Source of the DNA: a virus
Taxonomy: Duplodnaviria > Heunggongvirae > Uroviricota > Caudoviricetes
IMG/VR virus record: IMGVR_UViG_3300035034_002381
Coordinates: 1-64,000 of that record
Strand: one strand, 5' to 3'
DNA length: 64,000 nucleotides
The stretch's first letter is position 1, and each line of letters starts with the position of its first letter. A program made the translations under genes and the position numbers. Shown piece by piece: positions 2,715 through 35,989 of the stretch. The notes beneath the pieces are model-generated. The model did not search any database and was not told where the DNA came from. It saw only the letters and a program-made list of their open reading frames with translations.

Positions 2715-3176
2715 ATGGTAGATTTCAACACAATCACAGAGAAAAACGAATCTGAAGCAAAAGCAAAATTCAGAGAAAATGGTACCGGAGTTAAAATGGG
2801 AACATTTGCTTCTGGTGACGAAAGCAAATGGGAAGATCTAATTAACACAGGTCTTTTCAGTAATCAAGCTATCAAAAACAGAATGCTTGACGTTGCACGC
2901 AGAATTAACACTATGTGTAATGACGAACTTTTAGGTAATCTTGACGTGGCTTTTACTGTTACTGATGCTCGTGATAATAAGGTGGAATTTACCTACATGG
3001 ATATTTATACTTTTTTACGAGCGGCATACCGTTACAGAAGTGAAACTAAGAATTATAGAGAAATGAAAGCTAGAAAAGCTGAACTTGAAAAATTCACTGA
3101 AGAAACTAAGACCGTAAAAGAAAAACGTGCTGAGGCACTCAAGGAACTTAAAGAACTTGAAAAGTCTCTTGCATAA
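2715..3176 (+). CDS. hypothetical protein with C-terminal coiled coil
   Basis: 153-aa ORF preceded by the promoter motif; no recognisable catalytic motif. Confidence 0.7.
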   Translation: MVDFNTITEKNESEAKAKFRENGTGVKMGTFASGDESKWEDLINTGLFSNQAIKNRMLDVARRINTMCNDELLGNLDVAFTVTDARDNKVEFTYMDIYTFLRAAYRYRSETKNYREMKARKAELEKFTEETKTVKEKRAEALKELKELEKSLA

Positions 3177-3334
3177 AAGTTTCTGTCTCTGGGAGACCTA
3201 ACACTGATGATGACAAGCGTCTTGAAAACCTATTTAATCCATAAACTTGGGAAGAAAATGAGAGTGAGTAACTCGAATGAATCGAATGTATGATTCAAAA
3301 GGTATTGGTAGGTTAATTCTTATCAATACCTCTA

Positions 3335-3428
3335 AAATTCTTCTTAGAATCCATAAAACTTAGCTCATTGGTTGGGCATTTGTATAAGAACAAAAGGAGC
3401 GGTTCAATTCCGTAGACTAGAAGAATTT
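3335..3428 (+). ncRNA. stem-closed tRNA-mimic RNA (Y-RNA/YrlA-like architecture), module 1
   Basis: 10-bp terminal helix aaattcttct/agaagaattt (3335-3344/3419-3428); encloses the CTTAGAATCCATAAAACT motif, D-arm-like gctc-attggtt-gggc, hairpin tttgt-ataaga-acaaa and T-arm-like gcgg-ttcaatt-ccgt. Confidence 0.4.
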
Positions 3429-3432
3429 AATT

Positions 3433-3556
3433 GCCGGGTTAGTGTAAGGGTCAACACACGTAAAGTAAACATAGTGAACTTTACGAATCACTTAGAATAA
3501 CTAACTATACAATCCATATGGAGGACGGATAACTGGTTCGAGTCCAGTGCCTGGCA
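3433..3556 (+). ncRNA. 124-nt tRNA-like RNA with a large insertion between anticodon-position hairpin and T-arm
   Basis: acceptor gccgggt/gcctggc, D gtgt-aagggtca-acac, 8-bp hairpin cgtaaagt/actttacg, 46-nt insert carrying CTTAGAATAACTAACT, T actgg-ttcgagt-ccagt. Confidence 0.4.
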
Positions 3557-3567
3557 CAAATTAAATT

Positions 3568-3620
3568 GCAGAGTGGTGTAGTGGCAGCACACGTAAACGC
3601 CGATTAGTGAAGCATTTACG
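3568..3620 (+). ncRNA. paralogous 5'-half tRNA-like fragment
   Basis: gcagagtggtgtagtggcagcacacgtaaa...tagtgaagcatttacg parallels the 5' half of 3433-3556 (D gtgt/acac, hairpin cgtaaa/tttacg); no T-arm follows. Confidence 0.3.
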
Positions 3621-3720
3621 TTACACTAAAAAATTGGCAAATCTCGTTCAAAAGAAATTTTCAAATGTAACAACAGAAATTGAAGATGTTGATGAATGGG
3701 TATATTTATATGTAAGAATT

Positions 3721-3752
3721 TAAAACTTTTTTCAAACTAAAGAATATAAAGA
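3721..3752 (+). promoter_or_regulatory. TAAAACTTT ... TATAAAG promoter-like motif driving the 3761-3894 RNA
   Basis: motif ends about 9 nt before the 18-bp terminal stem. Confidence 0.5.
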
Positions 3753-3760
3753 ACAATAAT

Positions 3761-3894
3761 ACCAATAAAAATTCGACTTAGAATACCTAAAACTAAAGTT
3801 TAAATTAGCTCATTGAGCATATTTTTTTTATAAATACGGTCTAGGTTAATCCCTAGAAATTCAAACGTTTAGTCGAATTTTTATTGGTTTTTTA
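3761..3894 (+). ncRNA. stem-closed tRNA-mimic RNA (Y-RNA/YrlA-like architecture), module 3
   Basis: perfect 18-bp terminal helix accaataaaaattcgact/agtcgaatttttattggt (3761-3778/3871-3888) followed by a T-run; encloses CTTAGAATACCTAAAACT, tagctcattgagca and T-arm-like tctagg-ttaatc-cctaga; has its own upstream promoter motif. Confidence 0.5.
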
Positions 3895-3900
3895 AAATAT

Positions 3901-3975
3901 TGCGGGGTGGACTGGAGTTGGATCCAGCTTGGTCTCATAAGCCAAATCACGGGAGTTCGAATCTCTCCCCCGCTA
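3901..3975 (+). tRNA. tRNA-Met(CAT) type, second initiator-like body
   Basis: acceptor tgcgggg/ccccgct with a T1.T72 mismatch, anticodon arm ttggt-ctCATaa-gccaa, T gggag-ttcgaat-ctctc. Confidence 0.75.
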
Positions 3976-4280
3976 CTTGTTAATAGGCATTTTATCAGTA
4001 ACACTGGAAGTTTTGGCCGAATAAATTAAAAAGTAAAATGTGTGTTCGTGTGTTAGTAAAGAGCTGCACGAATTAAATTTAATAAGTTCTGACTAGTGGT
4101 TTCGGTTTAATAGGGAAAGATACTTACCACTGAAAAAACTAAAATGTATACCCTGTAGATTTTCAATATTTATCTAACTAAATATTGCGTGTTAGAAAGT
4201 TCTAGATTAACTGTGCACAGGTTATTTAGTTCTTATAAATTTTAGAATGCACTTAACAATGTAGCGTTAATCTAAAAAAT

Positions 4281-4354
4281 GCCTCGGTAACTCAGTTGGT
4301 TAGAGTATCTGCTCGACATGCAGAAAGCCACAGGTTCGAATCCTGTTCGGGGTA
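4281..4354 (+). tRNA. tRNA-Val(GAC) with C at position 33
   Basis: acceptor gcctcgg/tcggggt (G.U rich), D actc-agttggtta-gagt, anticodon arm tctgc-tcGACat-gcaga, T acagg-ttcgaat-cctgt. Confidence 0.7.
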
Positions 4355-4384
4355 CTTATTCTACTTAGAATACTTAAACTTTAT

Positions 4385-4419
4385 AAATTGGTTCGATTCC
4401 AATTTTTATTGGTCTTTTT
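4385..4419 (+). terminator. T-arm-like hairpin terminator
   Basis: aaattgg-ttcgatt-ccaattt followed by ttattggtcttttt; its 3' flank repeats the aatttttattggt of the module 3 stem. Confidence 0.45.
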
Positions 4420-4528
4420 CTGTCAATTAAGTATCAAATAAATTTTTAATATATTGATTGATTTGAATATATTAAACAACCTCTCTTAGAAAATCTAAGT
4501 TAGAGAAGTTAAATCATCAAAAACAAAA

Positions 4529-6472
4529 ATGATGTCTACAAAAACAAAATCTTTATCAAAAGAAAGAGTTGCCTCTGTTTCAGGAGATAAACCAAGACTC
4601 CCAAGAACTCTTGAAACTCTTCAAGGTTTAAGAACAGCTCAAGGATTATCTGACGCGCAAATTGCGAATATGTTAGATAACGCATTATCAGAAACTTCAA
4701 GTAACCATATTATATATGTTCTTGAAAGATTAATGTTACACATTGGTGATGTGAGTCGACAACACAATATGTTGAAAGAATTGGGAATTAATTCTAAATC
4801 TGGTGGCGCACAAGAACGTGGGGTATTCCGATCTATTTTACGATGGTGGGAAAAAACTTTGCCTGAATCATTTGCAGAAAATCTTCGAGTATTCGCTGAA
4901 TTCTCAGTTTTGGAAAACTTGATGTTTTATGAACTTAAAACTGAAAGAGCAACTGGAAAATTAATTGGAAAGGAAATTTTGTTTCCTATGCCAAGTAAAG
5001 TACATGAATTTCTAGCGAACGAAATTCACAAAAATAGAAATGTGAATCTTATTGCTAAGCATTTACCAAAATATGACACTGGTAAAAGTCGAACCACTAA
5101 GAAAACCATGCATATTAAAGACGGTAAGGATAGTTTCATGTGGAAACTTCCTGAAGGTAAAGCTTGGGTTAAATTAAATGGTGATCTAATCGAAGGAGAA
5201 TCTGTTAAGATTACTCAAGGTGATGTAGTTTCATATCCTCGTGATAAATCTTCACATGTTTTAGAAAAACAAAGATTCGTTAATTCTTGGATTTCTAGTT
5301 TCTGTAAAGTTATGGGATGGTCAATTACTGATTATAACAATTTCCGTAAACAACAAAACACACCGGAACAAAAATTCTCAAGTAAACGTGTTTTAAACAT
5401 GCCGAAATCAGATTTCTGGAAAATGCTTGATGGTTTGACTTCTGGTCAAAGATACAGAGTTTCTAGAATGTTAGATTTCAATGCGGAAAAGTGGGGAGAA
5501 TTACCGAAATGGTATGATTTGTGGGAAGGTAACCAAGAAAAAGTAGCCGATAAACTTCGACAAGCTGCAGCTGATGGTGATACTGAAGCAACAGAAAAAT
5601 TGAAGAAAGAATTCAAGGTTAAATCTACTGGAAAAAACACTGTTGATTTATTGAAAGATATGTTAACAGGTAATCATGACGATAGATTCATTAACAACAC
5701 TTATCAATCTATGATTGAGAATATGGATATTGTTGCGAATGTTTTTCCAGTAATTGATGGTTCCGCATCTATGGATTGCCAAATTGGTGGAGGATGGAGT
5801 CCTCGAAGTTCTCGAAGTTCTACGGATAGACAACTTTCAAATAGAGCTGTCGCATATGCTATGGCAATTGCATTTTCTACTAGAAACCCAGTACCAGGAT
5901 TCCGTAACACGTTCGGATGGTTCTCCAGAAACTTTCACATTGTTGGAAAATCTAAGTATGTGAACAATGCACCTAATCAATACGTTGATTCTGGAAGTTA
6001 TACTAAAAAGGTTAATGAGTTCAATGTTTTATCTGAAACTAATACTTTCACTGAAAACTACTCAAACTTGAGAAAATCTGATCCAGGAGAAATATCATCT
6101 ACAAATATGGGTTCTGTGATTACTCACTTCACAAATTTAGTAGAAACTGGTAAATTTCATGTTGAGGATCTTCCATCTGCGTTACTTTTTATCACAGATA
6201 ATGAAAACAACACAGGAATTAGTCCGAAGGAAGCGTTGGCAATAGCTAACAAAATTGGATGGTCTCCATTGGTTATTTTCTGGGGGTTAACTAAAGTTCC
6301 AAGCAACATGATGAATCAGTATAAGGGAATTCCTAACTGCTTACTTGTTGGAGGATTTAATGAATCAGTACTTTCACAAGTACTTAGGGGTATTAAATCT
6401 GGTTCAGTTGATCCAGAGGATGAAATCTGGAGTATTGTCGAAAATAAAAGATATGCAGTAATTACTGAGTAA
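4529..6472 (+). CDS. Ro60/TROVE-like (or DUF2828-like) protein with C-terminal vWA domain
   Basis: 647-aa ORF; MIDAS-type DGSASM, SSTNMG, LLFITDNENNTG and VGGFNESVLSQV resemble, by eye, the Ro60 vWA motifs DVSASM, GGTDCS, TDNETFAG and CGFDTGALDV; helical N-terminal two thirds. Confidence 0.55.
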   Translation: MMSTKTKSLSKERVASVSGDKPRLPRTLETLQGLRTAQGLSDAQIANMLDNALSETSSNHIIYVLERLMLHIGDVSRQHNMLKELGINSKSGGAQERGVFRSILRWWEKTLPESFAENLRVFAEFSVLENLMFYELKTERATGKLIGKEILFPMPSKVHEFLANEIHKNRNVNLIAKHLPKYDTGKSRTTKKTMHIKDGKDSFMWKLPEGKAWVKLNGDLIEGESVKITQGDVVSYPRDKSSHVLEKQRFVNSWISSFCKVMGWSITDYNNFRKQQNTPEQKFSSKRVLNMPKSDFWKMLDGLTSGQRYRVSRMLDFNAEKWGELPKWYDLWEGNQEKVADKLRQAAADGDTEATEKLKKEFKVKSTGKNTVDLLKDMLTGNHDDRFINNTYQSMIENMDIVANVFPVIDGSASMDCQIGGGWSPRSSRSSTDRQLSNRAVAYAMAIAFSTRNPVPGFRNTFGWFSRNFHIVGKSKYVNNAPNQYVDSGSYTKKVNEFNVLSETNTFTENYSNLRKSDPGEISSTNMGSVITHFTNLVETGKFHVEDLPSALLFITDNENNTGISPKEALAIANKIGWSPLVIFWGLTKVPSNMMNQYKGIPNCLLVGGFNESVLSQVLRGIKSGSVDPEDEIWSIVENKRYAVITE

Positions 6473-6576: not shown

Positions 6577-7140
6577 ATGAAAAATGTAAAAAACTTTCGT
6601 GAGTTTCTGAACGAGAATCGAGTCGAAAAGAGATTAGCTAGTCTGGACGCAGAATATACTATTGACAAAAAGTTGTGTAAACAATTAATGGATGTGGGAG
6701 AGCAAATAGATTATATATACAATAATTTAGATTTGCCACACTCTGACTTTGCCACTTCTAATTTTATACCACCCGAAATTGAAAACGATGATAAAACAGC
6801 GAGTGATTGGGTAGAATCTGAGAAGGCTCTTATAAGAAGTGAACTAAAATCTAAAGAATCTGAATATAAAAAAATTCTTAGAAAAATACAATCTAAACAT
6901 TCGTATATTAATGATGTAATTGAATATCTTAATCAAACTAATTTAGGTTTTACTTTAGAAAATACATTTATTGATAAAATAAACAGAAGAAATGATATCA
7001 TAAATACTGTTGTAATAAAAAGTTGGTATGGGTATGCTAAAGCTTCAAGAAAAGAATTAGAAAGATATAAAATAACACCTGAGCAACTTGCAGGTACTAT
7101 ATTATCAATGCGAGCAGTCGCTGATGAACTAACATATTAG
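6577..7140 (+). CDS. hypothetical protein with CTS-like N-terminal leader (MKNVKNFREFLNE)
   Basis: 187-aa ORF; leader resembles the T4 capsid targeting sequence MKTYQEFIAE. Confidence 0.7.
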   Translation: MKNVKNFREFLNENRVEKRLASLDAEYTIDKKLCKQLMDVGEQIDYIYNNLDLPHSDFATSNFIPPEIENDDKTASDWVESEKALIRSELKSKESEYKKILRKIQSKHSYINDVIEYLNQTNLGFTLENTFIDKINRRNDIINTVVIKSWYGYAKASRKELERYKITPEQLAGTILSMRAVADELTY

Positions 7141-7224: not shown

Positions 7225-7425
7225 ATGGAAAGTTTTAAAAGTATACTCGAATCTAAAGATTCTGATAAACTCGCAAAAGAGATCAATAATGCAATCATTA
7301 AAATTGATGATTCTATGTCATACAAAGATTTTGCAGCTGCAGTTATCAAAATAATGAAAGAAGAATACGGAGAACACCTATATACAGAATTCTTAGGAAT
7401 TTTACAAAAAAATCTAAAGAAATGA
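7225..7425 (+). CDS. small hypothetical protein (MESFKSILESK, weak CTS-like)
   Basis: 66-aa ORF; ATGA overlap with the next start. Confidence 0.6.
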   Translation: MESFKSILESKDSDKLAKEINNAIIKIDDSMSYKDFAAAVIKIMKEEYGEHLYTEFLGILQKNLKK

Positions 7426-9154: not shown

Positions 9155-9245
9155 GGAAGATAAAGCAGCTGCATTGGAGCGGCGACTAGCCTTGAAAACT
9201 AGGTCTCGGAGAAATCTGGGTGGGGTTCGAGTCCTCTGTCTTCCT
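9155..9245 (+). tRNA. tRNA-Ser(TGA)
   Basis: acceptor ggaagat/gtcttcc, anticodon loop ctTGAaa, long variable arm, T gggg-ttcgagt-cctc. Confidence 0.75.
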
Positions 9246-9277
9246 CAAAGTTTTAGTTCATTGACATATTAATATTA

Positions 9278-9361
9278 GAGGATGCGGTAATGGTGGTTAT
9301 TACAGTATCTTGGAAAGGTACCGATCGTTTATTCGGTCAGGGTTCGACTCCCTCATCCTCT
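9278..9361 (+). tRNA. tRNA-Ser(GGA)
   Basis: acceptor gaggatg/catcctc, anticodon arm gtatc-ttGGAaa-ggtac, variable arm gatcg-tttatt-cggtc, T aggg-ttcgact-ccct; ends uncertain by 1 nt. Confidence 0.75.
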
Positions 9362-9365
9362 GCTA

Positions 9366-9488
9366 TGTTCTTCTTAGAATAACTAATTTATGTAAATGTG
9401 AGTTCGAATCTCATCAAATGCTTTTAGCATCTGTAGCCAAATGGTTAGGCAATATACTTGAAATATATAACAAACGATTAGAAGAACA
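9366..9488 (+). ncRNA. circularly permuted tRNA-like element closed by a 9-bp leader-trailer helix
   Basis: order: helix 5' strand tgttcttct, CTTAGAATAACTAATTT, T-arm gtgag-ttcgaat-ctcat, capped acceptor hairpin caaatgc-tttta-gcatctg, ta, D-arm gcc-aaatggtta-ggc, anticodon arm atata-ctTGAaa-tatat, helix 3' strand agaagaaca. Confidence 0.5.
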
Positions 9489-9492
9489 ACAT

Positions 9493-9565
9493 GCTTCCAT
9501 AGTATAAAGGTTCATTATTCCTGTTTTGTAATCAGGCGATATCGGTTCGATTCCGATTGGGAGCT
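9493..9565 (+). tRNA. tRNA-Thr(TGT)
   Basis: acceptor gcttcca/tgggagc, anticodon loop ttTGTaa (31-39 T.T), T atcgg-ttcgatt-ccgat. Confidence 0.75.
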
Positions 9566-9714
9566 CAATGAATATGATGTTTATTTAGATCCTAAAAATG
9601 ATTATCTTATTGGTATAGATAGTAAAAAAATTGAAAAGGTCGAAGAATTGTATAATGTGCGTAATAATAGACAAGGATAATTTATCTTGGAATGATATTC
9701 AAAATAAAATAAAT

Positions 9715-9795
9715 GTTTCAGTGGTGGAATGGTAGACACGTCGGTCTTAGGAACCGATGCCGAAAGGCGTGAGAGTTCGAGTCTCTCCTGGAATA
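9715..9795 (+). tRNA. tRNA-Leu(TAG), canonical class II
   Basis: acceptor gtttcag/ctggaat, D gtgg-aatggtag-acac, anticodon arm tcggt-ctTAGga-accga, variable arm tgccgaaaggcgt, T gagag-ttcgagt-ctctc. Confidence 0.8.
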
Positions 9796-9796
9796 C

Positions 9797-9876
9797 ACTC
9801 TGGTGGATTAGGTAAATTGGTACAGCTAAACGGCTTAGACCCGTATCCCTTCTGGGTTCGAATCCCAGTCAGAGTA
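9797..9876 (+). tRNA. atypical 80-nt tRNA, anticodon TAG (Leu codons), expanded D region, short variable region
   Basis: acceptor actctgg/tcagagt, D region tggattaggtaaattggtacagctaa, anticodon arm acgg-ctTAGac-ccgt, T ctggg-ttcgaat-cccag, A73. Confidence 0.55.
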
Positions 9877-9881
9877 CAAAT

Positions 9882-9961
9882 GCTCCTGTGGTTTATGTAA
9901 ATTGGCACAGCTAAGCGGCTTAAACCCGCAACCTTTATGGGTTCGAGTCCCATCAGGAGTA
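9882..9961 (+). tRNA. atypical 80-nt tRNA, anticodon TAA (Leu codons), same family
   Basis: acceptor gctcctg/caggagt, D region tggtttatgtaaattggcacagctaa, anticodon arm gcgg-ctTAAac-ccgc, T atggg-ttcgagt-cccat, A73. Confidence 0.55.
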
Positions 9962-10056
9962 CAAAAGTTTATCAACGTCTTGAGTCAAGTTGGATGATGA
10001 CAAAAAGGCTAACGGCAGAAGTGAATCCATCGCACTGTGTTACATAAACTTTATCT

Positions 10057-10129
10057 GGCCAGGATTCTCAATTGGACGGGACTCTGTCTTCTAAACAGAT
10101 GTTTGTGGGTTCGAATCCCATCTTGGTCT
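10057..10129 (+). tRNA. tRNA-Arg(TCT)
   Basis: acceptor ggccagg/cttggtc, D tctc-aattggac-ggga, anticodon arm tctgt-ctTCTaa-acaga, T gtggg-ttcgaat-cccat. Confidence 0.85.
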
Positions 10130-10135
10130 CTAAAC

Positions 10136-10209
10136 GCAGGTATACCTAAGTGGTTTAAAGGAGCGGATTGCAAACCCGTTATTCATTGGTTCGAATCCAA
10201 TTACCTGCT
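10136..10209 (+). tRNA. tRNA-Cys(GCA)
   Basis: perfect acceptor gcaggta/tacctgc, anticodon loop ttGCAaa, T attgg-ttcgaat-ccaat. Confidence 0.8.
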
Positions 10210-10214
10210 CACTT

Positions 10215-10297
10215 GGAAGGTAACTTGATGGTGATAGAGGTAGTTTGCTAAACTACTGGCCGTTTACTCGGTCGAGGTTCGATTCCTCTGCCTTCCG
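10215..10297 (+). tRNA. tRNA-Ser(GCT)
   Basis: acceptor ggaaggt/gccttcc, anticodon arm gtagt-ttGCTaa-actac, variable arm ggccg-tttact-cggtc, discriminator G. Confidence 0.8.
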
Positions 10298-10301
10298 CTA
10301 T

Positions 10302-10379
10302 GCTCCTGTGGATTATGTAAAAGCACAGCTAACACCTTGAGGAGGTGATCCTTTGTGGGTTCGAGTCCCGCCAGGAGTA
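10302..10379 (+). tRNA. atypical 78-nt tRNA, anticodon GAG (Leu codons), same family
   Basis: acceptor gctcctg/caggagt, D region tggattatgtaaaagcacagctaa, anticodon arm cacc-ttGAGga-ggtg, T gtggg-ttcgagt-cccgc, A73. Confidence 0.55.
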
Positions 10380-10382
10380 CAA

Positions 10383-10476
10383 AGAAGCAAAGAGTTAGTT
10401 AGGTTAGACTGGCTTGTTATGTGGTGAAATTGGTAAACGCGAGCGCTTTGGTGCTTAGTAACCTTAACACTTCTTA
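10383..10476 (+). ncRNA. tRNA-derived fragment (Leu-type D-arm, no T-arm) flanked by 6-bp complementary ends
   Basis: aagaag/cttctt ends; internal gtggtgaaattggtaaacgc resembles the Leu D-arms at 9715 and 10788. Confidence 0.3.
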
Positions 10477-10479
10477 TTT

Positions 10480-10553
10480 GCTGAGTTAGTATAGTCGGTT
10501 TATTACGATACCCTGGTACGGTATTAACACCAGTTCGATTCTGGTACTCAGCT
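10480..10553 (+). tRNA. tRNA-Thr(GGT)
   Basis: perfect acceptor gctgagt/actcagc, anticodon arm atacc-ctGGTac-ggtat, T accag-ttcgatt-ctggt. Confidence 0.8.
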
Positions 10554-10565
10554 CATGAAAAATAT

Positions 10566-10645
10566 GCCTCTGTGGATTATGTAAATTGGCACAGCTAACG
10601 GTTTCAAACTCCGATCTTTTATGGGTTCGAATCCCATCAGAGGCA
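10566..10645 (+). tRNA. atypical 80-nt tRNA, anticodon CAA (Leu codons), same family
   Basis: acceptor gcctctg/cagaggc, D region tggattatgtaaattggcacagctaa, anticodon arm cgg(t)-ttCAAac-(t)ccg, T atggg-ttcgaat-cccat, A73. Confidence 0.5.
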
Positions 10646-10661
10646 CAAGTAGGAGAAATTT

Positions 10662-10746
10662 AGTCCAGTGGCGAAACAGGTATACGCACAAGATTTAAGC
10701 TCTTGCTTCCATTGAGGAATTGCGGGTTCGATTCCCGCCTGGATTA
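10662..10746 (+). tRNA. tRNA-Leu(TAA), canonical class II
   Basis: acceptor agtccag/ctggatt, D gcga-aacaggtata-cgc, anticodon arm caaga-ttTAAgc-tcttg, long variable arm, T gcggg-ttcgatt-cccgc. Confidence 0.8.
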
Positions 10747-10749
10747 CTA

Positions 10750-10781
10750 AGTTAGTACGGGTTCGATCCCCGTCTTGGCTA
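10750..10781 (+). ncRNA. second tRNA-like minihelix (acceptor-like stem plus T-arm)
   Basis: agttag/ttggct (wobble-rich) enclosing acggg-ttcgatc-cccgt; no D or anticodon arm. Confidence 0.35.
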
Positions 10782-10787
10782 CTAAAT

Positions 10788-10899
10788 TTGACCGTGGTGA
10801 AATTGGTAAACACACCCTTAAATCAGGGAGTATGAGAATATGTACTTGAAGCTGACGCAGAACATCATACATATGTAGGTTCGAATCCTATCGGTCGAA
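10788..10899 (+). ncRNA. 112-nt tRNA-like RNA (Leu-type D-arm) with a roughly 46-nt extra arm
   Basis: acceptor ttgaccg/cggtcga, D gtg-aaattggtaaa-cac, weak anticodon-position hairpin ccct-taaatc-aggg, extra hairpin atatgta...tacatat, T gtagg-ttcgaat-cctat. Confidence 0.45.
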
Positions 10900-10904
10900 C
10901 AAAT

Positions 10905-10978
<74 letters not shown>

Positions 10979-10983
10979 CTATC

Positions 10984-16355: not shown

Positions 16356-16688
16356 ATGAAAAAATGGGATGATATAAGAAACTCGATGTCTGGAAATTCA
16401 GATATTATAGAAGTTTGGAAGAAAGTTGTAGATAAACACCAAAATGAAGAAATTGAGTGGATTGAAAACCTTAGAAAACAAGGTTATAAAGCATCTCATC
16501 CTAATGACGGTTGGGTAGACAGAGAAAATAACAAAATACATCTGGTTTATCCACAATTCAACGATGGAATTGGTGTGAATGATAAACTAATGATTGGTAG
16601 TCCAAACAGTGATAATAATCGACCTGTGCGAATAACCGGCATTGATGAATTTGCAATGACATATTATTTATTTGAAGACTTAGAATAA
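16356..16688 (+). CDS. hypothetical protein
   Basis: 110-aa ORF followed by a terminator. Confidence 0.65.
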   Translation: MKKWDDIRNSMSGNSDIIEVWKKVVDKHQNEEIEWIENLRKQGYKASHPNDGWVDRENNKIHLVYPQFNDGIGVNDKLMIGSPNSDNNRPVRITGIDEFAMTYYLFEDLE

Positions 16689-16712
16689 CCATAACATATT
16701 ATCCTTTTCTTA

Positions 16713-16747
16713 ATGACCAAGATTCTAAGAATCTTGGTCATTTTTTA
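16713..16747 (+). terminator. intrinsic terminator
   Basis: 13-bp stem atgaccaagattc/gaatcttggtcat with loop taa and a T-run. Confidence 0.85.
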
Positions 16748-17058
16748 TGAGAAAAATCTATATATATAAACTAATAATATGTATGGACACAGAATCACAT
16801 AGCTCGTTTAGCGAATCTTTACAAGATAGAAATTACTATCTAGTCAAAGATTACTTACATGAACTAGGATTTTTGCCCTCACAATATTATATTAAAGATT
16901 ATCAGAATTCAATTGAAGTTGATTTTGATGATAATCAAGCCGTCTTTTATATTATAGAAGATATCAAAAAGACAAAATACATAGAGCATTTTGATGTTGA
17001 TTATAAAAAGCCGGCGAATTCAAGAAGACATACTGCAGTGTTTAATTTCACTCAGTAA
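16747..17058 (+). CDS. hypothetical protein (alternative start 16783)
   Basis: 103-aa ORF; the first ATG abuts the terminator T-run, so the internal ATG at 16783 (MDTESH) may be the real start. Confidence 0.55.
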   Translation: MRKIYIYKLIICMDTESHSSFSESLQDRNYYLVKDYLHELGFLPSQYYIKDYQNSIEVDFDDNQAVFYIIEDIKKTKYIEHFDVDYKKPANSRRHTAVFNFTQ

Positions 17059-17119: not shown

Positions 17120-19195
17120 ATGAACAAAGATTCTAATGTATTATTAATACTTGAAAGATCTTCATCAAATCTAGATGTTAACAAGGAATCGGGTGATTAT
17201 ATTCTCGAAGGTATTTTTGCTCAATTTGGAGTTGAAAACAATAACAAAAGGATTTATGAGGAAAAAGAGTATTTACCACATCTCGAATACTTAAAAAAGA
17301 AAATTTCAGAAAATCGATTGATGGGAGAACTTGATCACCCAGAAAAATTTGAAATTGCTTTAGACAAAGTATCTCACGTAATTGAGAATATTGAATATGA
17401 TCAAGCAAAACGCCAGATTAAAGGGCGTGTACGTATTTTAGATACGCCATCCGGAAAAATCGCAAAGAGTCTAATCGACTCTAATATTCCTATTAGTATT
17501 TCATCACGAGCTGCTGGTTCTGTGAGTGAAAATAAAACTGTTTCTATTAAGAGAATTTTTACTTATGATTTAGTTGCTGATCCAGGTTTTGAAGATGCAC
17601 AATTATCAAGAATAAATGAATCATTTGGTTTAGACAACGAAAATAATCTACAAATTTTTGATGCTTCTAGATGGGACAACAATTTTTCGTTTGATGAAAA
17701 AGAAAAAGAAAAGCCTGTTGAGGCAATAAAAGAAAATAAAGAAAATACTACAGATATGAAAGAATTTGTGACAATTGAAAGCATGGAACGCTATTCATTA
17801 ATGGTCAAAGAAGAAATTGCTAAAATCAATACACGATTAGAAACTCTGAATGAGAGTAATGCTAATTCTGATGAAACAGCAGAACTTAGAAAAACCGTTG
17901 ATAATTTAGTAGGGTATGTTAATGAAATGGCTACCGAAATTAATCAAAACAGAGAATACATGTCATATACTGCTGAAATGCTTGACGAAAGTATTTCTTG
18001 GTCAGAAAATGAGATCGGTAATCAAGTTACTAAATTAATTGAATATACTGAATCTGAATTGGCTGTTCATCTTGATGGTTTAATTGAACACAATAACTAT
18101 CTTGCAGAAAAATTAAACACGACTATTGGATACGTTAATGAAGAATTGGCTCCAATTTTAGATGAGTCTATTAATCACAATGATTATTTAGTTGAACAAA
18201 TTGCTAATAACCGAAAATATACTGAGTATCTTGCTGAAAATGCTGTAGACTCAACAAATTTTGATTCGTTAGTAGAATATACTGAACATGTATATGAAAA
18301 TGCTGCTGGAAAATTTGAAGGTAAAATTAATGAATCTGCAACTGCTGAGGATGTAATTAAAAAACATAAACTTAAAACACATCACGATGTTGCTAAGTTT
18401 ATAGGAGATTTTTATGATTTACCAGATACAATTAAAGGATCTACCGATAAATTCACATTTAAAGACGTTGAGGACAACGTAATTAAAGTTGATGGTAAAG
18501 CAGGAACAGTAGACGGTAAAAAATTATCTCTGGCGGGATTGGTTGATCTTATGTCAGGTGGTGATTTTGATCTTCTTATTGAAAATCAAGCTAATAAAAT
18601 TAACGAAAATAAAAACGTATCAACAGATATTGAAAATCGATACATGAGTATCAATGAAAAAATTGACGCGGCTCTTGAGCAGATCAAGAAAACAAAGACT
18701 GAAGAAATCACAGAGTCTAAACGTCATCCTTTCACCAAACTACTCAACGAAAGTAATAGAGCTGCTTTCACTGAGTTAGGAAAAACCGAAAAAGAAAAGG
18801 TTTCAAAAGCTCTAAATGAAAACGGTATTTTAAGTACTGTAAAACTTAACGAAAAATTCACTTCATTGTTAGAAGGTAATTTCGAAATTGTTGAAGAGCC
18901 TAAATGGTTATCTGAAGCACCAGACAAGTATAAAGCTATTTTTGAAAGTTTGAATGAGGAAACTCAGGATAAACTTAGAGCTCAAGCTTCATGGTACGAA
19001 GGTAAACTTAAATCTCCTTATCAAATCGAAAATTTCTGGGCAACTAGAGGACTGAACGAAGACGTTGAGTTGAAGAATCTGAAAGACGATGCTGATGTAA
19101 AACTTATTAAAGAAAGTAATGATAGATCTAAAGATCTGGGTTATTCTTCTGATCGAGTTGCTGCAATTAAACAAGGTCTGAAAAGATTCAAATAA
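17120..19195 (+). CDS. prohead core protease (T4 gp21-like) fused to a scaffold-like coiled-coil region
   Basis: LEGIFAQFGVENNNKRIYEEKEY...GELDHP...ISISSRAAGSV parallels T4 gp21 IEGIFMQAEVVNRNKRLYPKR...GELNHP...GVSSRGLGSL; acidic helical C-terminal 450 aa; sits directly upstream of the capsid gene. Confidence 0.8.
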   Translation: MNKDSNVLLILERSSSNLDVNKESGDYILEGIFAQFGVENNNKRIYEEKEYLPHLEYLKKKISENRLMGELDHPEKFEIALDKVSHVIENIEYDQAKRQIKGRVRILDTPSGKIAKSLIDSNIPISISSRAAGSVSENKTVSIKRIFTYDLVADPGFEDAQLSRINESFGLDNENNLQIFDASRWDNNFSFDEKEKEKPVEAIKENKENTTDMKEFVTIESMERYSLMVKEEIAKINTRLETLNESNANSDETAELRKTVDNLVGYVNEMATEINQNREYMSYTAEMLDESISWSENEIGNQVTKLIEYTESELAVHLDGLIEHNNYLAEKLNTTIGYVNEELAPILDESINHNDYLVEQIANNRKYTEYLAENAVDSTNFDSLVEYTEHVYENAAGKFEGKINESATAEDVIKKHKLKTHHDVAKFIGDFYDLPDTIKGSTDKFTFKDVEDNVIKVDGKAGTVDGKKLSLAGLVDLMSGGDFDLLIENQANKINENKNVSTDIENRYMSINEKIDAALEQIKKTKTEEITESKRHPFTKLLNESNRAAFTELGKTEKEKVSKALNENGILSTVKLNEKFTSLLEGNFEIVEEPKWLSEAPDKYKAIFESLNEETQDKLRAQASWYEGKLKSPYQIENFWATRGLNEDVELKNLKDDADVKLIKESNDRSKDLGYSSDRVAAIKQGLKRFK

Positions 19196-19213: not shown

Positions 19214-21007
19214 ATGAAACTTTTAAACGAACAAAAGATCTATGATGAGTGGGCTCCTATGCTAGAGGAGGAAACTTCAATCAAAGATTCTTCAAAATTG
19301 GGATGGATGACTAAATATTGTCACTACCATTCATTAAATGAAGCATTCACTGCACCTGCAGCTGGATTGCTTAACACGCCAGGTATGGGTAATGTAACTC
19401 CTGCTGGAGCTGCTGCCGGTGGTGCTAATGCATTCTACGGAAGTACTACTACTGGTTCAGGAGATAAATTCCCTTCATTATTGCCACTATCTATTCAGGT
19501 AGCTGCAAGAACTGTAGGATTTGATATCGTTCCTGTTATTCCTATGAACGGACCTTCGGGGGTTCTTACATACATGGATTATGTCTATGCTGGTGGAAAA
19601 GGAGCATTCGGAGCACCTCCAGGTGCTGCAGGTGCTGCAAACCCAGGTCTTAACGCTTACGCTGACAAGCCGTTAGTATTCAAAATCCAACTTGTTGGAG
19701 ATGAGAAAACTGCTTTCGATGCTGCTGCTGCGGGTGATGAATTCTTATTTGCTTCTGGTGCACTTGCTGCAACTGGAAACACACTACGTGTTGCTAAAAT
19801 CGGTCCTTCTAGAATCGACGGTCACTCTATTTTTAGAGTAATTGGAGAATCTGGTGATGCTGATGCGACTGGCGGTGCAGCTGCTGCTGTAGCGACAACT
19901 CTTACATCGCCACAATCTATCACATTGGCTTCTGTATTTACAGGAACTGCTGCGATGATTACTGCGGCTGGTGCTTTAGTTGATGCTGCTGATTCAGTAG
20001 TTAATCGTCCAGAACTTGTTAAAGCTCTTGAAGATCACGTTCAAGGTTTTGCTGGTGCAGGTCCAAACGATGATGAAGCATGGTCAGGAAATGCGACTGA
20101 TGGTACTGTATCTTACGAACCAATGCGAAGAGGTGTAGGTGAAGAGCAGTACTTCAGAACTATGGGACTTCAAGCTTTCACGAAATTCATTGAAGCTGAA
20201 ACTTTCCAAGTTGCTGCTAATGTTACTACAGAACAAATTCAAGATTTACAACGTCAGTATGGAATCGATGTGATTGCAATGATCGAGAACTCATTAGTAA
20301 ATGATATCTCTCAATCTATTAACAAGCACATTCTTTCTAGAGCTTTCGCTCTTGGATGGGGTGCAAACCTTACATTCAGAGATGTTGAAGGTGCAAACCT
20401 TAACCTTGAATTGGTAAACACTGGAACTGGTGTTACTGCAACTCCTGCTTACATTGATAAGACTGGAGTAGGTACTGCATCTGTATATCCTGCTTTCCAA
20501 GAATTTGCTGGAGCTGCTGCTGCTGCATCATTGGAAAACCAAGCAACATTCCAACGAAGAGTATATTCTAAAGTACTTGCTGCTGGAAACGTTGTTACTC
20601 AAAGAGGACGTAGAGGACCTGCAAACTTCATTGTTACTAACCTTCAGTTAGCGACAGCGTTGCAAGATTCTGCACAATTCTCTTGGGCACCAATGGCAAA
20701 CACCATTAACCAAAACAACGGTTCGCTTTACCCAGTGGGTACTGTAGCCGGAATGACTGTTTATGTAGATCCTAACATGGGATTCTCTGATAACAGAATT
20801 CTTGTTGGACGTAAAGGTGCTGATGAAGAACCAGGACTTAAATTCATGCCTTACTTAATGGCTGAATCAATCCAAACAATTGCTGAAGGTACAATGGCTC
20901 CGAAAGTTGCCGTAAAATCACGTTATGCTTTAGTTGAAGCTGGACACCACCCAGAAACAATGTACTTTACTATTGCAGTAAATGTACCTGTAGGTGGATT
21001 AGTATAA
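19214..21007 (+). CDS. major capsid protein (T4 gp23-like)
   Basis: 597-aa Ala/Gly-rich ORF; VGFDIVPVIPMNGPSGVL, EQIQDLQRQYGIDV, GRRGPANFIVTN and MTVYVDPNM line up by eye with gp23 blocks; strong terminator downstream. Confidence 0.8.
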   Translation: MKLLNEQKIYDEWAPMLEEETSIKDSSKLGWMTKYCHYHSLNEAFTAPAAGLLNTPGMGNVTPAGAAAGGANAFYGSTTTGSGDKFPSLLPLSIQVAARTVGFDIVPVIPMNGPSGVLTYMDYVYAGGKGAFGAPPGAAGAANPGLNAYADKPLVFKIQLVGDEKTAFDAAAAGDEFLFASGALAATGNTLRVAKIGPSRIDGHSIFRVIGESGDADATGGAAAAVATTLTSPQSITLASVFTGTAAMITAAGALVDAADSVVNRPELVKALEDHVQGFAGAGPNDDEAWSGNATDGTVSYEPMRRGVGEEQYFRTMGLQAFTKFIEAETFQVAANVTTEQIQDLQRQYGIDVIAMIENSLVNDISQSINKHILSRAFALGWGANLTFRDVEGANLNLELVNTGTGVTATPAYIDKTGVGTASVYPAFQEFAGAAAAASLENQATFQRRVYSKVLAAGNVVTQRGRRGPANFIVTNLQLATALQDSAQFSWAPMANTINQNNGSLYPVGTVAGMTVYVDPNMGFSDNRILVGRKGADEEPGLKFMPYLMAESIQTIAEGTMAPKVAVKSRYALVEAGHHPETMYFTIAVNVPVGGLV

Positions 21008-34122: not shown

Positions 34123-35022
34123 ATGATATCAGAAGAAAAATTTCCCGATGGACAAATTAATTTTAAAGCAAATACAGAGGACATCAAAAGTCTTTTAACA
34201 CCACCATACATTTTATCAAATGATAATGCGATAAATTTTACAATTGATCTAAGTAACTGGGATAAATTTCAAACTTTGTTGGCAGCCAATGCAAAATTTA
34301 GACAAACGCACAAACAAATTAATTTACATATAGGTTATCTTTTTGGTTCAAGAAGTGACCGTAAATTTGAACATGACGGAATTAACTATTTTCGTGATGT
34401 AATTGCTAAAACAATCAATGATCAAAATTTCAACAAAGTTACTGTATTTGATCCACACTCACTTGCAGTAGAAAATGCAATTAATAATTGTGAGAGTATT
34501 CATCCGTTCCCACAAATCAATCACCATTTTTTAAATATGGTTGGAAATTTAGATTTATCTGAATATGAAATTGTTATAGCGTCTCCAGACCTTGGGGCAT
34601 ACAAAAAAGTCTTTGGAATTTTTGCTAAATTTTCCGAAAAATATCCAAACATACATTTTAATTTTATTTCCGCAAATAAAATTCGTAGTCTGTCTGGTGA
34701 TATTTCTATGGTTTTAAATCCACCATATAAAGAATTTGACAAATCAAAAAAACGAATTCTATATTTAATTGATGATATTTGTGATGGCGGGAGGACCTTT
34801 ATAGAATTTGCTAAACTTCTTAACGAAGATTTTGAGAAAAAGTATCTATATGTATCACATGGAATATTTTCTAAAGGTCTTGATCCATTATTAGAACATT
34901 TCGATAAAATTTTTACTACAAACAGTATTTCGAATACTTATATCAAATATCTAACAAACGATAATACCATTCTAAATTCTAACATTCTTTTTACCACATT
35001 TATTTCGCAACGCAATGAATAA
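34123..35022 (+). CDS. ribose-phosphate pyrophosphokinase (Prs)-like enzyme; candidate ADPR-pyrophosphate synthetase (Adps) of NARP1
   Basis: 299 aa; VFDPHSLAVENAI resembles the Prs DLHA loop, and YLIDDICDGGRTF is a type I PRPP-binding loop. Confidence 0.6.
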   Translation: MISEEKFPDGQINFKANTEDIKSLLTPPYILSNDNAINFTIDLSNWDKFQTLLAANAKFRQTHKQINLHIGYLFGSRSDRKFEHDGINYFRDVIAKTINDQNFNKVTVFDPHSLAVENAINNCESIHPFPQINHHFLNMVGNLDLSEYEIVIASPDLGAYKKVFGIFAKFSEKYPNIHFNFISANKIRSLSGDISMVLNPPYKEFDKSKKRILYLIDDICDGGRTFIEFAKLLNEDFEKKYLYVSHGIFSKGLDPLLEHFDKIFTTNSISNTYIKYLTNDNTILNSNILFTTFISQRNE

Positions 35023-35989
35023 AAAAGCAACAATTCTTCTTGGACTGCCATTAGCAGGCAAGTCGACTTATATAGGAAACAGAATAGAATATGGTGATTG
35101 GTCAGACACAGGATTAGTTTTAGTATCTGCAGATGATCTTAAAGAAAATCATGAAGATTATGATCCCGACCATGCGTATAAAATTCATGAGTGGTCAGTT
35201 AAAGAGGCCGAAAGGCAAATGAAAGAATACTCAGAATTTGGATCAAAACACATTATCATGGACGGTGGTGGCATTAACAATTCATATACTCGTAGAATTA
35301 TGTCTGATCTACGTTTAAAAGGTTATGAAATTGAACTTATACATATTAAAACGCCGCTCCAAGTTTGTCTTCTTAGAAATGAGAAGCGGGTCCGCAAAGT
35401 TCCAGTGCATGATATTGTAACAAAGGCAGCTCGAGAACGTAAACAATATGAGATACTTAAAGATGTTGTAGATAGTGTTACTATAGTTCCATATTTCACA
35501 AACAAACATATTTTTATAGATATGGATGGAGTTATTGCGGGACAGTCTGTCTTGCCAGAATTTGAAGGAAAAATAGATTTTGTTAATAGCGAAATTTTTA
35601 CTATTTTACCACCTGTTCATCAAGTTATTGATAAACTTAATAGTCTTGATTCTGAAAAACATACACTTTATATTTTATCAGCAACACCGAATTCATATTC
35701 GTATACTGAAAAACATGATTGGTTAGATAAACATTTTAACATACCAAGAGAACGCAGATTTTTTGTAAATGCTGGAAAGCATAAAGCAGAAATGTTAGAA
35801 AATCTAAGAATAAAACTCAAAACTGATAAACGTGATGTCACTCTGATTGAAGATACGCACTCGACACTTAAAGATGTTAGAGACCTTAGAATGAATCCAA
35901 TACATGTATCTGAATTTTTATCAAATGATTTTTTGCGAGATGAAGAATTATATGACTATAAATATTACGAAAACCCAAATAATAAATAA
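35015..35989 (+). CDS. P-loop kinase fused to HAD phosphatase (T4 polynucleotide kinase/phosphatase-like architecture)
   Basis: GLPLAGKST Walker A; IMDGGGINNSYTRR and RNEKRVRKVPVHDI parallel T4 Pnk ISDTNLNPERR and RNSKRGTKAVPIDV; C-terminal FIDMDGVIA is a DxDG HAD motif. Confidence 0.5.
   Translation: MNKKATILLGLPLAGKSTYIGNRIEYGDWSDTGLVLVSADDLKENHEDYDPDHAYKIHEWSVKEAERQMKEYSEFGSKHIIMDGGGINNSYTRRIMSDLRLKGYEIELIHIKTPLQVCLLRNEKRVRKVPVHDIVTKAARERKQYEILKDVVDSVTIVPYFTNKHIFIDMDGVIAGQSVLPEFEGKIDFVNSEIFTILPPVHQVIDKLNSLDSEKHTLYILSATPNSYSYTEKHDWLDKHFNIPRERRFFVNAGKHKAEMLENLRIKLKTDKRDVTLIEDTHSTLKDVRDLRMNPIHVSEFLSNDFLRDEELYDYKYYENPNNK

Follow-up and report, generated by a model that had tools for sequence, protein, structure and literature searches.

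Particles of Ro60 and Y RNA occur in animals and bacteria and in a few phages, and only a part of what they do is understood. The known systems closest to the one studied here are Ro60 (TROVE2) and the bacterial Rsr proteins with their Y RNAs (YrlA, Yrn1), together with phage Ro60 proteins and their Yrl RNAs (Thermus phage phiLo, mycobacteriophages, CcrColossus, and Bacillus phage G). In the case of phiLo, two Y-like RNAs are located just upstream of the Ro60 gene (PMC12135203). In bacteria, tRNA mimicry by Y RNAs is found with either order of the arms, exemplified by Yrn1 and YrlA, and the YrlA of M. smegmatis is cleaved by RNase P and acquires CCA (PMC4201824); for Ro/TROVE proteins, a function as RNA-repair platforms with a tRNA-like partner in jumbo phages was proposed (PMC7824862). 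In this work, we analyzed a 64,000-nucleotide (nt) stretch of phage DNA (IMG/VR record IMGVR_UViG_3300035034_002381, positions 1 to 64,000; hereafter the window), in which the gene of a 647-amino acid (aa) Ro60-like protein (4529-6472) is accompanied by an array of small tRNA-like RNAs.

A phage Ro protein with Y-like RNAs is, as a concept, already known; new here are the branch of the protein, the putative RNA docking motif, the number and variety of the tRNA-derived partners, and the permuted and start-codon copies described below. The reading favored by us, to which we give an even chance, is that of a phage Ro/Y-RNA-type particle, whose protein would bind the adjacent RNAs and control its own synthesis. 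Besides the fold of the protein and the structures of the RNAs, the argument draws on conservation, covariation, strand specificity, and tight gene linkage over two protein families, and from these we infer physical binding, autoregulation, and a downstream role in tRNA quality control, repair, or decoy activity.

The initial annotation of the window, made by eye, had recognized the von Willebrand factor A (vWA) domain of Ro60, with its MIDAS (metal ion-dependent adhesion site), in four sequence blocks. All of them, i.e., DGSASM (aa 410-415), SSTNMG (T525), FITDNENNTG (D557), and GGFNESVL, are present in the open reading frame (ORF) 4529-6472. The vWA domain carries a complete DxSxS...T...D MIDAS (D410, S412, S414, T525, and D557), and across 37 homologues D410, G411, S412, S414, M415, T525, and D557 are invariant. 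The AlphaFold2 model built from these 37 homologues was confident (predicted local distance difference test 84.5, predicted template modelling score 0.81), and in the Foldseek search with this model, ranks 1-6 were all Ro60 structures, aligned over the full length. The superposition on Ro60 of Xenopus, Thermus phage phiLo, and Deinococcus covered 300-380 residues, versus approximately 165 for matches limited to the vWA domain, which indicates that the helical N-terminal domain is also Ro60-like; a protein with a generic vWA part only, which the initial annotation had allowed for, was thus not found.

Sequence searches gave a more distant picture. With the 647-aa protein, no match was found in NCBIfam, and phmmer and family-profile searches of the Protein Data Bank (PDB) sequences returned nothing, Ro60 included. 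PHROG 850 ("RNA-binding protein") matched the C-terminal half only, and none of the 95 full-length metagenomic homologues (38-66% identity) carried a precomputed Pfam domain. The family profile matched 1,497 of 1.84 billion representative proteins, and the distant matches carried both DUF2828 (PF11443) and DUF7788 (PF25043), with E values of 1e-15 to 1e-21. The comparison with 24 DUF2828+DUF7788 proteins in hhalign (probability 100%, E 8.6e-44, 439 aligned columns, residues 25-648) showed full-length homology, including the same MIDAS and C-terminal blocks, and the best PDB sequence matches of the DUF2828 profile were in turn Ro60 and TROVE proteins, at marginal E values of 0.006, 0.013, and 0.16. 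The profile homology together with the fold matches places the protein in the DUF2828/DUF7788 superfamily, without sequence-level TROVE membership; it is a long divergent branch of this superfamily with a predicted Ro60 fold. Unlike canonical DUF2828 proteins, the window family (at least 95 members) and a sister family sharing 24% identity with it (hhalign E 9e-86) fall under the Pfam thresholds and are about 130-150 aa longer. Unlike Ro60, the window protein has no sequence-level TROVE match and has two large insertions in the helical domain; a beta-rich insertion lies at about aa 187-239.

Both RNAs that the initial annotation had placed upstream of the gene turned out to be copies of one previously undescribed module. 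The unifying module itself, its permuted copy, and its copy in the 5' untranslated region (UTR) had been overlooked. The gene and the module elements of the window are as follows:

3335-3428, + strand: module RNA 1; closing helix 3335-3344/3419-3428, with two more pairs past a bulge
3761-3888, + strand: module RNA 2; perfect 18-bp closing helix 3761-3778/3871-3888, followed by a T6 run
4479-4509, + strand: mini-module in the 5' UTR of the Ro-like gene, CCTCT-CTTAGAAAATCTAAGT-TAG-AGAAG; fold z = -2.5
4529-6472, + strand: gene of the protein with a predicted Ro60-type fold, 647 aa; helical N-terminal domain and C-terminal vWA domain
9366-9488, + strand: tRNA-Ser(UGA)-like module in circularly permuted order; closed by the helix 9366-9374/9480-9488, motif 9373-9380

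The module is composed of an 8-9 bp helix, the sequence of which varies by copy. Its 5' strand runs into CUUAGAA(U), usually followed 8-12 nt downstream by an A-rich tract, and (U/A)UAG precedes its 3' strand. The helix ends in conserved C-G and U-A pairs; UAGAA(U) continues the 5' strand and a U stands before the 3' strand. Although not demanded by the search, this U ahead of AG was kept in 60 of 78 cases.

The upstream flank of the Ro-like gene was compared among 38 related loci (designated by L numbers); of the sister-family loci, one was obtained by a narrower alignment search and the rest by contig look-ups. Over the window and the 38 related loci, 140 copies of CTTAGAA were counted on the gene strand and 25 on the opposite one, and for strict modules the respective numbers are 66 and 0. 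The helix statistics were computed directly, since neither the permuted set nor the 3' closing strands could be brought into a MAFFT/RNAalifold alignment. Within the non-redundant loci, a partner was present for 55 of 107 motifs, as compared with 12.7 ± 3.1 (maximum 22) in a null obtained by helix swapping, and the 55 partnered motifs comprise 46 distinct helix heptamers. The pairing of the helix is, therefore, covariation beside a fixed flanking motif. Homologous phages, for which the initial annotation had considered a lack of the stems, do possess them, with the conserved motif and covarying helices.

In the window, modules were found at 3343, 3777, 4485, and 9373, a local hairpin form at 3472-3498, and motif-only copies at 4364 and 16679; the extended motif is confined to the two tRNA regions and the single site 16679. 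This distribution bears on another explanation, in which CTTAGAAT acts at the DNA level as a special promoter class for the tRNA/small-RNA units and the Ro-like gene, the complementary segments being terminator-like or incidental. TAGAAT resembles a -10 hexamer, TTAGAATA agrees in our own reading with 5/8 positions of the T4 late box TATAAATA, the A-rich tract lies 8-12 nt downstream, all strict modules are on the coding strand, and in L031, L032, L036, L039, and L047 the motif precedes ATG by 4-15 nt, as it would for a leaderless transcript. We nevertheless consider this explanation very unlikely, since a promoter needs no partner, whereas the variable helices covary far above the null with partners 16-130 nt away and UAG (with the U conserved as given above) precedes the partner strand; moreover, in the hairpin form (arrangement B, see below) the partner lies upstream of the motif. 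A general promoter can be ruled out, as the motif is confined to RNA regions and missing at about 50 other gene starts of the window, whose ordinary intergenic regions use TATAAT-like and T4-late-like TATAAATA boxes.

Several further candidates were rejected. RNase III-type processing stems were ruled out by reasoning, as 8-9 bp is too short, and integron attC-like or miniature inverted-repeat transposable element-like DNA elements because the conserved part lies inside a variable inverted repeat and no recombinase accompanies it. No Rfam match to known self-cleaving ribozymes was found. As a separate observation, the isolated extended motif (GACTTAGAATAACC; 16679-16760), for which no helix partner was found, is located at the end of ORF 16356-16688 and is followed by a strong terminator-like hairpin, with the head-gene cluster downstream.

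The end helices of 10 and 18 bp described in the initial annotation were confirmed by inverted-repeat searches and are both present in the minimum-free-energy folds. In module RNA 1, the arms 3335-3344/3419-3428 (10 nt) are 100% complementary, the motif CTTAGAAT occupies 3343-3350, and CTAG stands ahead of the 3' strand. Three arms lie in its interior (D, 3363-3377; anticodon-like, 3379-3395; T, 3400-3412), and the acceptor stem is absent; the Rfam tRNA model aligns with 3359-3415 over model positions 6-65 only (22 bits, gathering threshold 29). The fold of 3335-3428 alone is marginal (z = -1.9, 8/200 shuffles as good), and the element was taken as real because of the comparative data across loci. 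Module RNA 2, with arms 3758-3778/3871-3891 (21 nt, 95% complementary, including the perfect 18 bp), is strongly non-random (z = -5.6, 0/200 shuffles as good). It carries CTTAGAAT at 3777-3784 and TTTAG ahead of the 3' strand, and encloses degenerate D-like, anticodon-like (loop UUUUUAU), and T-like hairpins. TAGCTCATTG is found in both RNAs (3361 and 3806). Neither ARAGORN nor the Rfam tRNA model called a tRNA at 3335-3428 or 3761-3888, and a cloverleaf with the canonical 7-bp acceptor was not obtained. The U-run noted after the second RNA is present (T-run 3889-3894); the promoter ascribed to it did not hold up, as the 9/12 sigma-70 match at 3731-3760 is one of five such matches, with 6.3 expected in shuffles.

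The interiors of the modules are of four kinds. The first one, with D, anticodon, and T arms but without an acceptor, is represented by the two window RNAs and by elements of L002, L013, L018, and L003. The enclosed D-arm-like and T-arm-like hairpins, pointed out already in the initial annotation, and the anticodon-like arm covary in eight related elements (14 consensus pairs, nine compensated). The second kind is permuted, in the order T-arm, 3' acceptor, short loop, 5' acceptor, D-arm, and anticodon arm; it includes window 9366-9488 (UGA), L003 4590-4722, L024 3705-3830, L031 ~100-225, L035 ~690-810, and several elements in L044. The third kind is short (40-60 nt), often a hairpin with an anticodon-type arm, and the fourth one is a module hairpin grafted into a tRNA-like gene (window 3433-3556, L004-L007, L025-L027, and L046). 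A strict 5-bp/7-nt anticodon-type hairpin was found in 20 of 47 interiors, against 1.3 ± 1.1 in shuffled sequences, with many different "anticodons".

In the permuted window element, the T-arm (9398-9414) and the 3' acceptor strand (9415-9421) are separated by the loop TTTTA from the 5' acceptor strand (9427-9433), the class-II D-arm (9436-9450), and the anticodon arm (9452-9468). Thus, within 9398-9468 the 3' half lies ahead of the 5' half with complementary acceptor strands (CAAATGC/GCATCTG, 6/7 positions pair). The acceptor strands pair in five permuted elements (window and four other loci), and likewise in L044. With its anticodon UGA, U73, and class-II D-arm, the window element is like the neighboring tRNA-Ser(GGA), and it stands in line within the tRNA array; no canonical tRNA-Ser(UGA) was called in the window. 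In the literature, we found no report of permuted tRNA genes in phages. The arrangement resembles that of permuted and split tRNA genes of Cyanidioschyzon merolae and some Archaea, where the 3' half is also upstream of the 5' half and an outer-flank helix closes the unit. It differs in occurring in a bacterial-type virus, in having a flank helix with a sequence motif instead of a bulge-helix-bulge, and in a break point located in the variable arm, with long linkers after any cut. Two features of the permuted group may be recorded here: a C-A mismatch at acceptor-helix position 4-6 in several copies, and a class-II (Ser/Leu-type) D-arm combined with the anticodon UGU (Thr) in L031 ~100-225 and L044 2084-2195.

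Permuted bodies raise the question of maturation. Bulge-helix-bulge motifs serve introns as well as permuted or split tRNAs, and the module might be an RNA processing signal that is their bacterial-virus counterpart: an endonuclease would cut both strands at the helix/motif junction and a ligase would join the inner ends. Hairpin copies in tRNA-like genes would then be introns, enclosing copies would give circular RNAs, and RNase P with 3' trimming would free mature tRNAs from the permuted genes; in a variant without ligation, RNase P would cut the closed acceptor loop, leaving a two-piece tRNA held by the helix. For the Ro-like ring, no role beyond that of a chaperone or platform would be left. 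The pairing acceptor strands and canonical 7-nt anticodon loops of the permuted elements are in agreement with this, as is the appearance of 9366-9488 as the missing tRNA-Ser(UGA) of the phage (U73, class-II D-arm, in-line position) and the use of one local geometry in both loop-closed and open-ended form, as with the bulge-helix-bulge. A polynucleotide kinase (PNK)-like kinase/phosphatase is encoded in the window, an RNA ligase gene adjoins the canonical DUF2828 gene in GAP32, and the YrlA of M. smegmatis, cut by RNase P and given CCA, provides a parallel (PMC4201824). However, cutting at the motif leaves linkers of 8-30 nt in the variable/anticodon region and yields no canonical tRNA, the interior of most modules is an acceptor-less body or a non-tRNA stretch of 40-60 nt, neither of which can become a tRNA, and excision of a start-codon module would destroy the mRNA. 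The class-II scaffold with the Thr anticodon UGU in two permuted elements suggests drift rather than decoding, and no ligase or splicing endonuclease was found in the window ORFs scanned (about 38 of about 56 ORFs of at least 50 aa). Taken together, we regard the processing signal as unlikely.

A stronger form of this proposal, which we consider distinctly unlikely, holds that these are the first circularly permuted tRNA genes in bacterial viruses, and that the CUUAGAA/UAG helix is a new maturation signal with the Ro-like ring as a platform, yielding working circularized or two-piece tRNAs from permuted or helix-interrupted precursors (e.g., tRNA-Ser(UGA) from 9366-9488). If true, a protein of the DUF2828 type would take part directly in tRNA biogenesis. 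The permuted tRNA-likes also show that standard tRNA finders overlook a part of the phage tRNA-related content.

The linkage of the modules with the Ro-like gene is tight. Of the 37 strict modules considered, 34 are located 0-2 kb upstream of the gene and three downstream, with none inside the gene (50.7 kb) or at 2-7 kb upstream (about 43 kb), and this proximity holds even where the tRNA arrays reach further on both sides. The sister-family loci carry the same arrays, with the motif CUUA(C/U)AAU: L044 has six modules, mostly permuted tRNA-likes, in the 1 kb upstream of the gene, L046 has two directly upstream (one hairpin-type, one enclosing), and in L048 four occupy the gap that follows the gene downstream and one lies 1.4 kb upstream, in addition to a further motif whose AAG-type partner abuts the start codon. 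The start codon is surrounded by a single module in five loci (L031, L032, L036, L039, and L047), with the 5' strand 4-15 nt before ATG and the 3' strand in codons 8-17; in L039 no tRNA gene lies within 4 kb. The window mini-module 4479-4509 lies 20 nt before ATG, and equivalent modules just upstream of the gene occur in L009, L010, L013, L018, and L045 (a 443-kb contig, where the distance to ATG is 38 nt). That the module stays with the gene even without a tRNA array points to functional coupling. The position of the leader and start-codon copies suggests an operator for translational autoregulation, for which 4479-4509 is the candidate in the window.

In the favored Ro/Y-RNA-type reading, the 647-aa protein would be a divergent phage relative of Ro60, i.e., a helical ring closed by the vWA/MIDAS domain, and the small RNAs beside its gene would be its Y-RNA-like partners. 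The helix with CUUAGAA/UAG may serve as the docking site, comparable to the bulged stem, conserved in Y RNAs, on which Ro60 docks. The variable interiors, presenting tRNA-shaped surfaces (anticodon arms, D/T arms, and whole permuted bodies), would be the effector or bait part, with which tRNA-binding enzymes, nucleases, or repair factors could interact in the infected cell. A module copy in the leader or around the start codon would allow the protein to repress its own translation.

With such a locus, the Ro/Y-RNA pattern would also cover the DUF2828 superfamily, present in 711 cultured-phage records (KVP40-like, GAP32-like, and others), and make its candidate RNA ligand concrete, i.e., a short helix with CUUAGAA/UAG. 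It would mean that phages can graft one putative docking helix onto many tRNA-shaped bodies, permuted ones included. The repertoire of these bodies suggests that they take part in conflicts with the host over tRNA damage, repair, or decoys, and the copies at the start codon hint at a simple, easily assayed circuit of autoregulation.

The locus shares with Ro60 systems the predicted order of a helical (HEAT-like) ring followed by a vWA/MIDAS fold, and small RNAs adjoining the gene on the same strand. As in Y RNAs, the 5' end of each RNA pairs with its 3' end to form a closing stem, which holds a conserved element, whereas the interior varies. The order stem, D, anticodon, T, and stem in window RNAs 3335-3428 and 3761-3888 is that of Yrn1, and the order stem, T, closed acceptor, D, and stem in 9366-9488, L003 4590-4722, L024, L031, L035, and several L044 elements is that of YrlA. 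Ro60/Y loci contain 1-4 RNAs, whereas up to eight or more module RNAs were found per locus here, many of which, unlike Y RNAs, keep a full canonical anticodon arm. Further differences are the module copy in or around the translation start of the gene itself and the position of the RNAs inside a large phage tRNA array; no partner such as polynucleotide phosphorylase is known.

Several observations weigh against the Ro/Y-RNA-type reading. The stem motif is CUUAGAA/UAG and not GNCGAA or the metazoan bulged helix; the GNCGAAN0-1G stem motif of bacterial Y RNAs (PMC4201824) is not conserved here, GTCGAA in 3871-3888 being one instance of a variable helix. No window or related element reached the gathering threshold (69 bits) of Rfam YrlA (RF02553). 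The best score, 34.9 bits (E 3.7e-4), was obtained for L024 3729-3830 in an end-to-end model alignment; in the window, 9397-9450 gave a partial match of 16 bits and 3320-3900 gave nothing. Since the scores stay under the threshold, the resemblance to YrlA is one of architecture and not of Rfam membership. In Pfam-A (hmmscan, E up to 0.1), the 647-aa protein matched neither TROVE (PF05731) nor DUF2828/DUF7788, no functional data on DUF2828 were found in the literature, and its "RNA-binding protein" label is annotation only. A different factor, of the phage or of the host, could recognize the conserved motif, the fifth base of the motif (G, C, or U) is not strictly family-bound (sister-family L047 has G), and the gene linkage could in part be due to synteny inherited in a single phage lineage. 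In the cultured phages ValKK3 and GAP32, no such module lies upstream of the canonical DUF2828 gene.

In the light of these data, the claims of the initial annotation can be narrowed. The Ro60/TROVE-like character of the protein is supported by the whole-length Ro60 fold and the DUF2828 profile homology, and not by a Pfam TROVE or DUF2828 match. The RNAs are Y-like in their Yrn1 and YrlA topologies but miss the Rfam Y RNA thresholds (34.9 versus 69 bits; 16 bits for the window). The proposed phage Ro ribonucleoprotein with several Y-like RNAs among tRNAs is, therefore, partly supported, by the fold and the stems, and lacks TROVE/Rfam sequence membership. It had also been compared with T4.

T4 encodes rnaC and rnaD, small stable RNAs of unknown role, among its tRNA genes, and is not known to encode a Ro-like or DUF2828-like protein beside them. 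The window RNAs are likewise encoded among the tRNA genes of a T4-type phage.

The 1.3-kb region upstream of the gene, described earlier as a non-coding stretch with RNAs, does contain the RNAs indicated, and also two tRNA genes, a tRNA-like gene, and a truncated copy of the latter. The remaining features of the locus are:

2715-3176, + strand: conserved upstream neighbor gene, 153 aa, with a long C-terminal helix
3433-3556, + strand: tRNA-like gene; acceptor, D, and T arms present, middle region unusually large (sequence reading; fold z = -2.7)
3568-3627, + strand: truncated paralogue of the tRNA-like gene 3433-3556 (comparison with L008)
3901-3976, + strand: canonical tRNA-Met(CAU) among the module RNAs (ARAGORN; Rfam tRNA 28.6 bits)
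4281-4355, + strand: canonical tRNA-Val(GAC) among the module RNAs (ARAGORN; Rfam tRNA 61.6 bits)
4364-4404, + strand: CTTAGAAT (4364-4371) and T-arm-like hairpin AATTGG TTCGATT CCAATT (4386-4404); a 3' partner is not evident

The 153-aa neighbor gene marks the upstream edge of the RNA array, which separates it from the Ro-like gene in at least 15 related loci. The tRNA-like gene 3433-3556 was called neither by ARAGORN nor by Rfam. Its middle holds the module as a hairpin (TAGTGA 3472-3477/TCACT 3488-3492) followed by CTTAGAAT at 3491-3498, and this arrangement B adjoins the Ro-like gene on its upstream side in L004-L007, L025-L027, and L046. An H-type pseudoknot in this gene was rejected from the sequence reading as sterically unlikely (a 2-nt loop spanning a 7-bp stem). 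A perfect 9-bp A/T-only helix (3424-3432/3559-3567), without CUUAGAA, pairs its leader with its trailer and may be due to chance. T-arm hairpins similar to that at 4386-4404 are located 60-90 nt upstream of the gene in L005, L023, L026, and L027; a pairing of motif 4364 with 4494-4509 looks like a by-product of the near-palindromic CTTAG.

The comparison with the 99%-identical relative L008 revealed three indels, all in the RNA region (window 3184-3261, 3627, and 4426; L008 5422, 5788-6058, and 6860-6897), as well as a rearranged first tRNA array. L008 has a complete copy of the truncated paralogue and a small ORF, and 271 nt are missing from the window; the deletion junction lies within the motif (CACT|TAGAAT), and the 3' half of the tRNA-like gene and the start of the small ORF were lost. 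The indel-prone region and the truncated copy could be taken as a sign that the RNAs are decaying tRNA pseudogenes or recombination debris of an unstable array, and the protein an unrelated vWA protein, possibly a virion component; arms as degenerate as a 6-nt loop or a 3-nt D-loop and the annotation of a few cultured-phage DUF2828 genes as "structural protein" would fit this. We find such an origin hardly credible, as the motif and architecture are kept across phages whose proteins are 24-66% identical, with helix covariation and strand specificity, compensatory changes maintain the pairing of the internal arms, and the module persists beside the gene where tRNA genes are not nearby.

The window phage is an uncultured, AT-rich, distant T4-like myovirus, with T4-type head genes (Gp23-type capsid 19214-21007, prohead protease 17120-19195). 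Every window ORF of at least 110 aa is on the + strand, with a few shorter minus-strand ORFs overlapping them. Nucleotide and tblastn searches of 50,697 cultured-phage records with the locus and the protein were negative at E 1e-5; the only matches there were weak (E 6e-4 or worse), C-terminal, and to DUF2828 genes. The scan of a genome collection matched one short contig of a metagenome-assembled genome.

The tRNA genes of the window form clusters at 229-1094 and 9277-10979, the further ones being those at 3901-3976 and 4281-4355 (ARAGORN). Four paralogous unusual tRNA-like genes (9809-9868, 9882-9961, 10302-10380, and 10566-10646) share GCTCCTGTGG(A/T)TTATGTAAA..GCACAGCTAA. Three of them score 22-34 bits with the Rfam tRNA model, 10566-10646 has no plus-strand tRNA match, and ARAGORN calls one of the four, as Leu-GAG. 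ARAGORN also misses the 112-nt tRNA-like gene 10788-10899 (35.7 bits with the Rfam tRNA model; about 44 nt in the variable region) and the class-II tRNA-like gene 9155-9244 (tRNA-Sec model 30.9 bits). In relatives, suppressor-type tRNAs with the anticodon CTA (amber) or TTA (ochre) occur at L002 10009-10081, L015 10658-10730, L016 9183-9256, and L024 2339-2412, which hints at stop-codon reassignment in a part of this phage group.

Among the other genes, window ORF 35015-35989 combines a P-loop kinase (Zeta/AAA_33/KTI12-like) with an NT5C/HAD phosphatase and resembles a polynucleotide kinase-phosphatase, and ORF 62635-63840 contains three S1 RNA-binding domains. In Cronobacter phage GAP32 (L042, NC_019401.1, 104503-107451), the canonical DUF2828 gene GAP32_176 lies directly 3' of the RNA ligase gene GAP32_175, with a structured spacer of 168 nt. 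About 1.2 kb downstream of the Ro-like gene of L024, a near-threshold Rfam match to the DUF805b RNA motif lies at 7313-7348, scoring 33.7 bits against a gathering threshold of 35.6.

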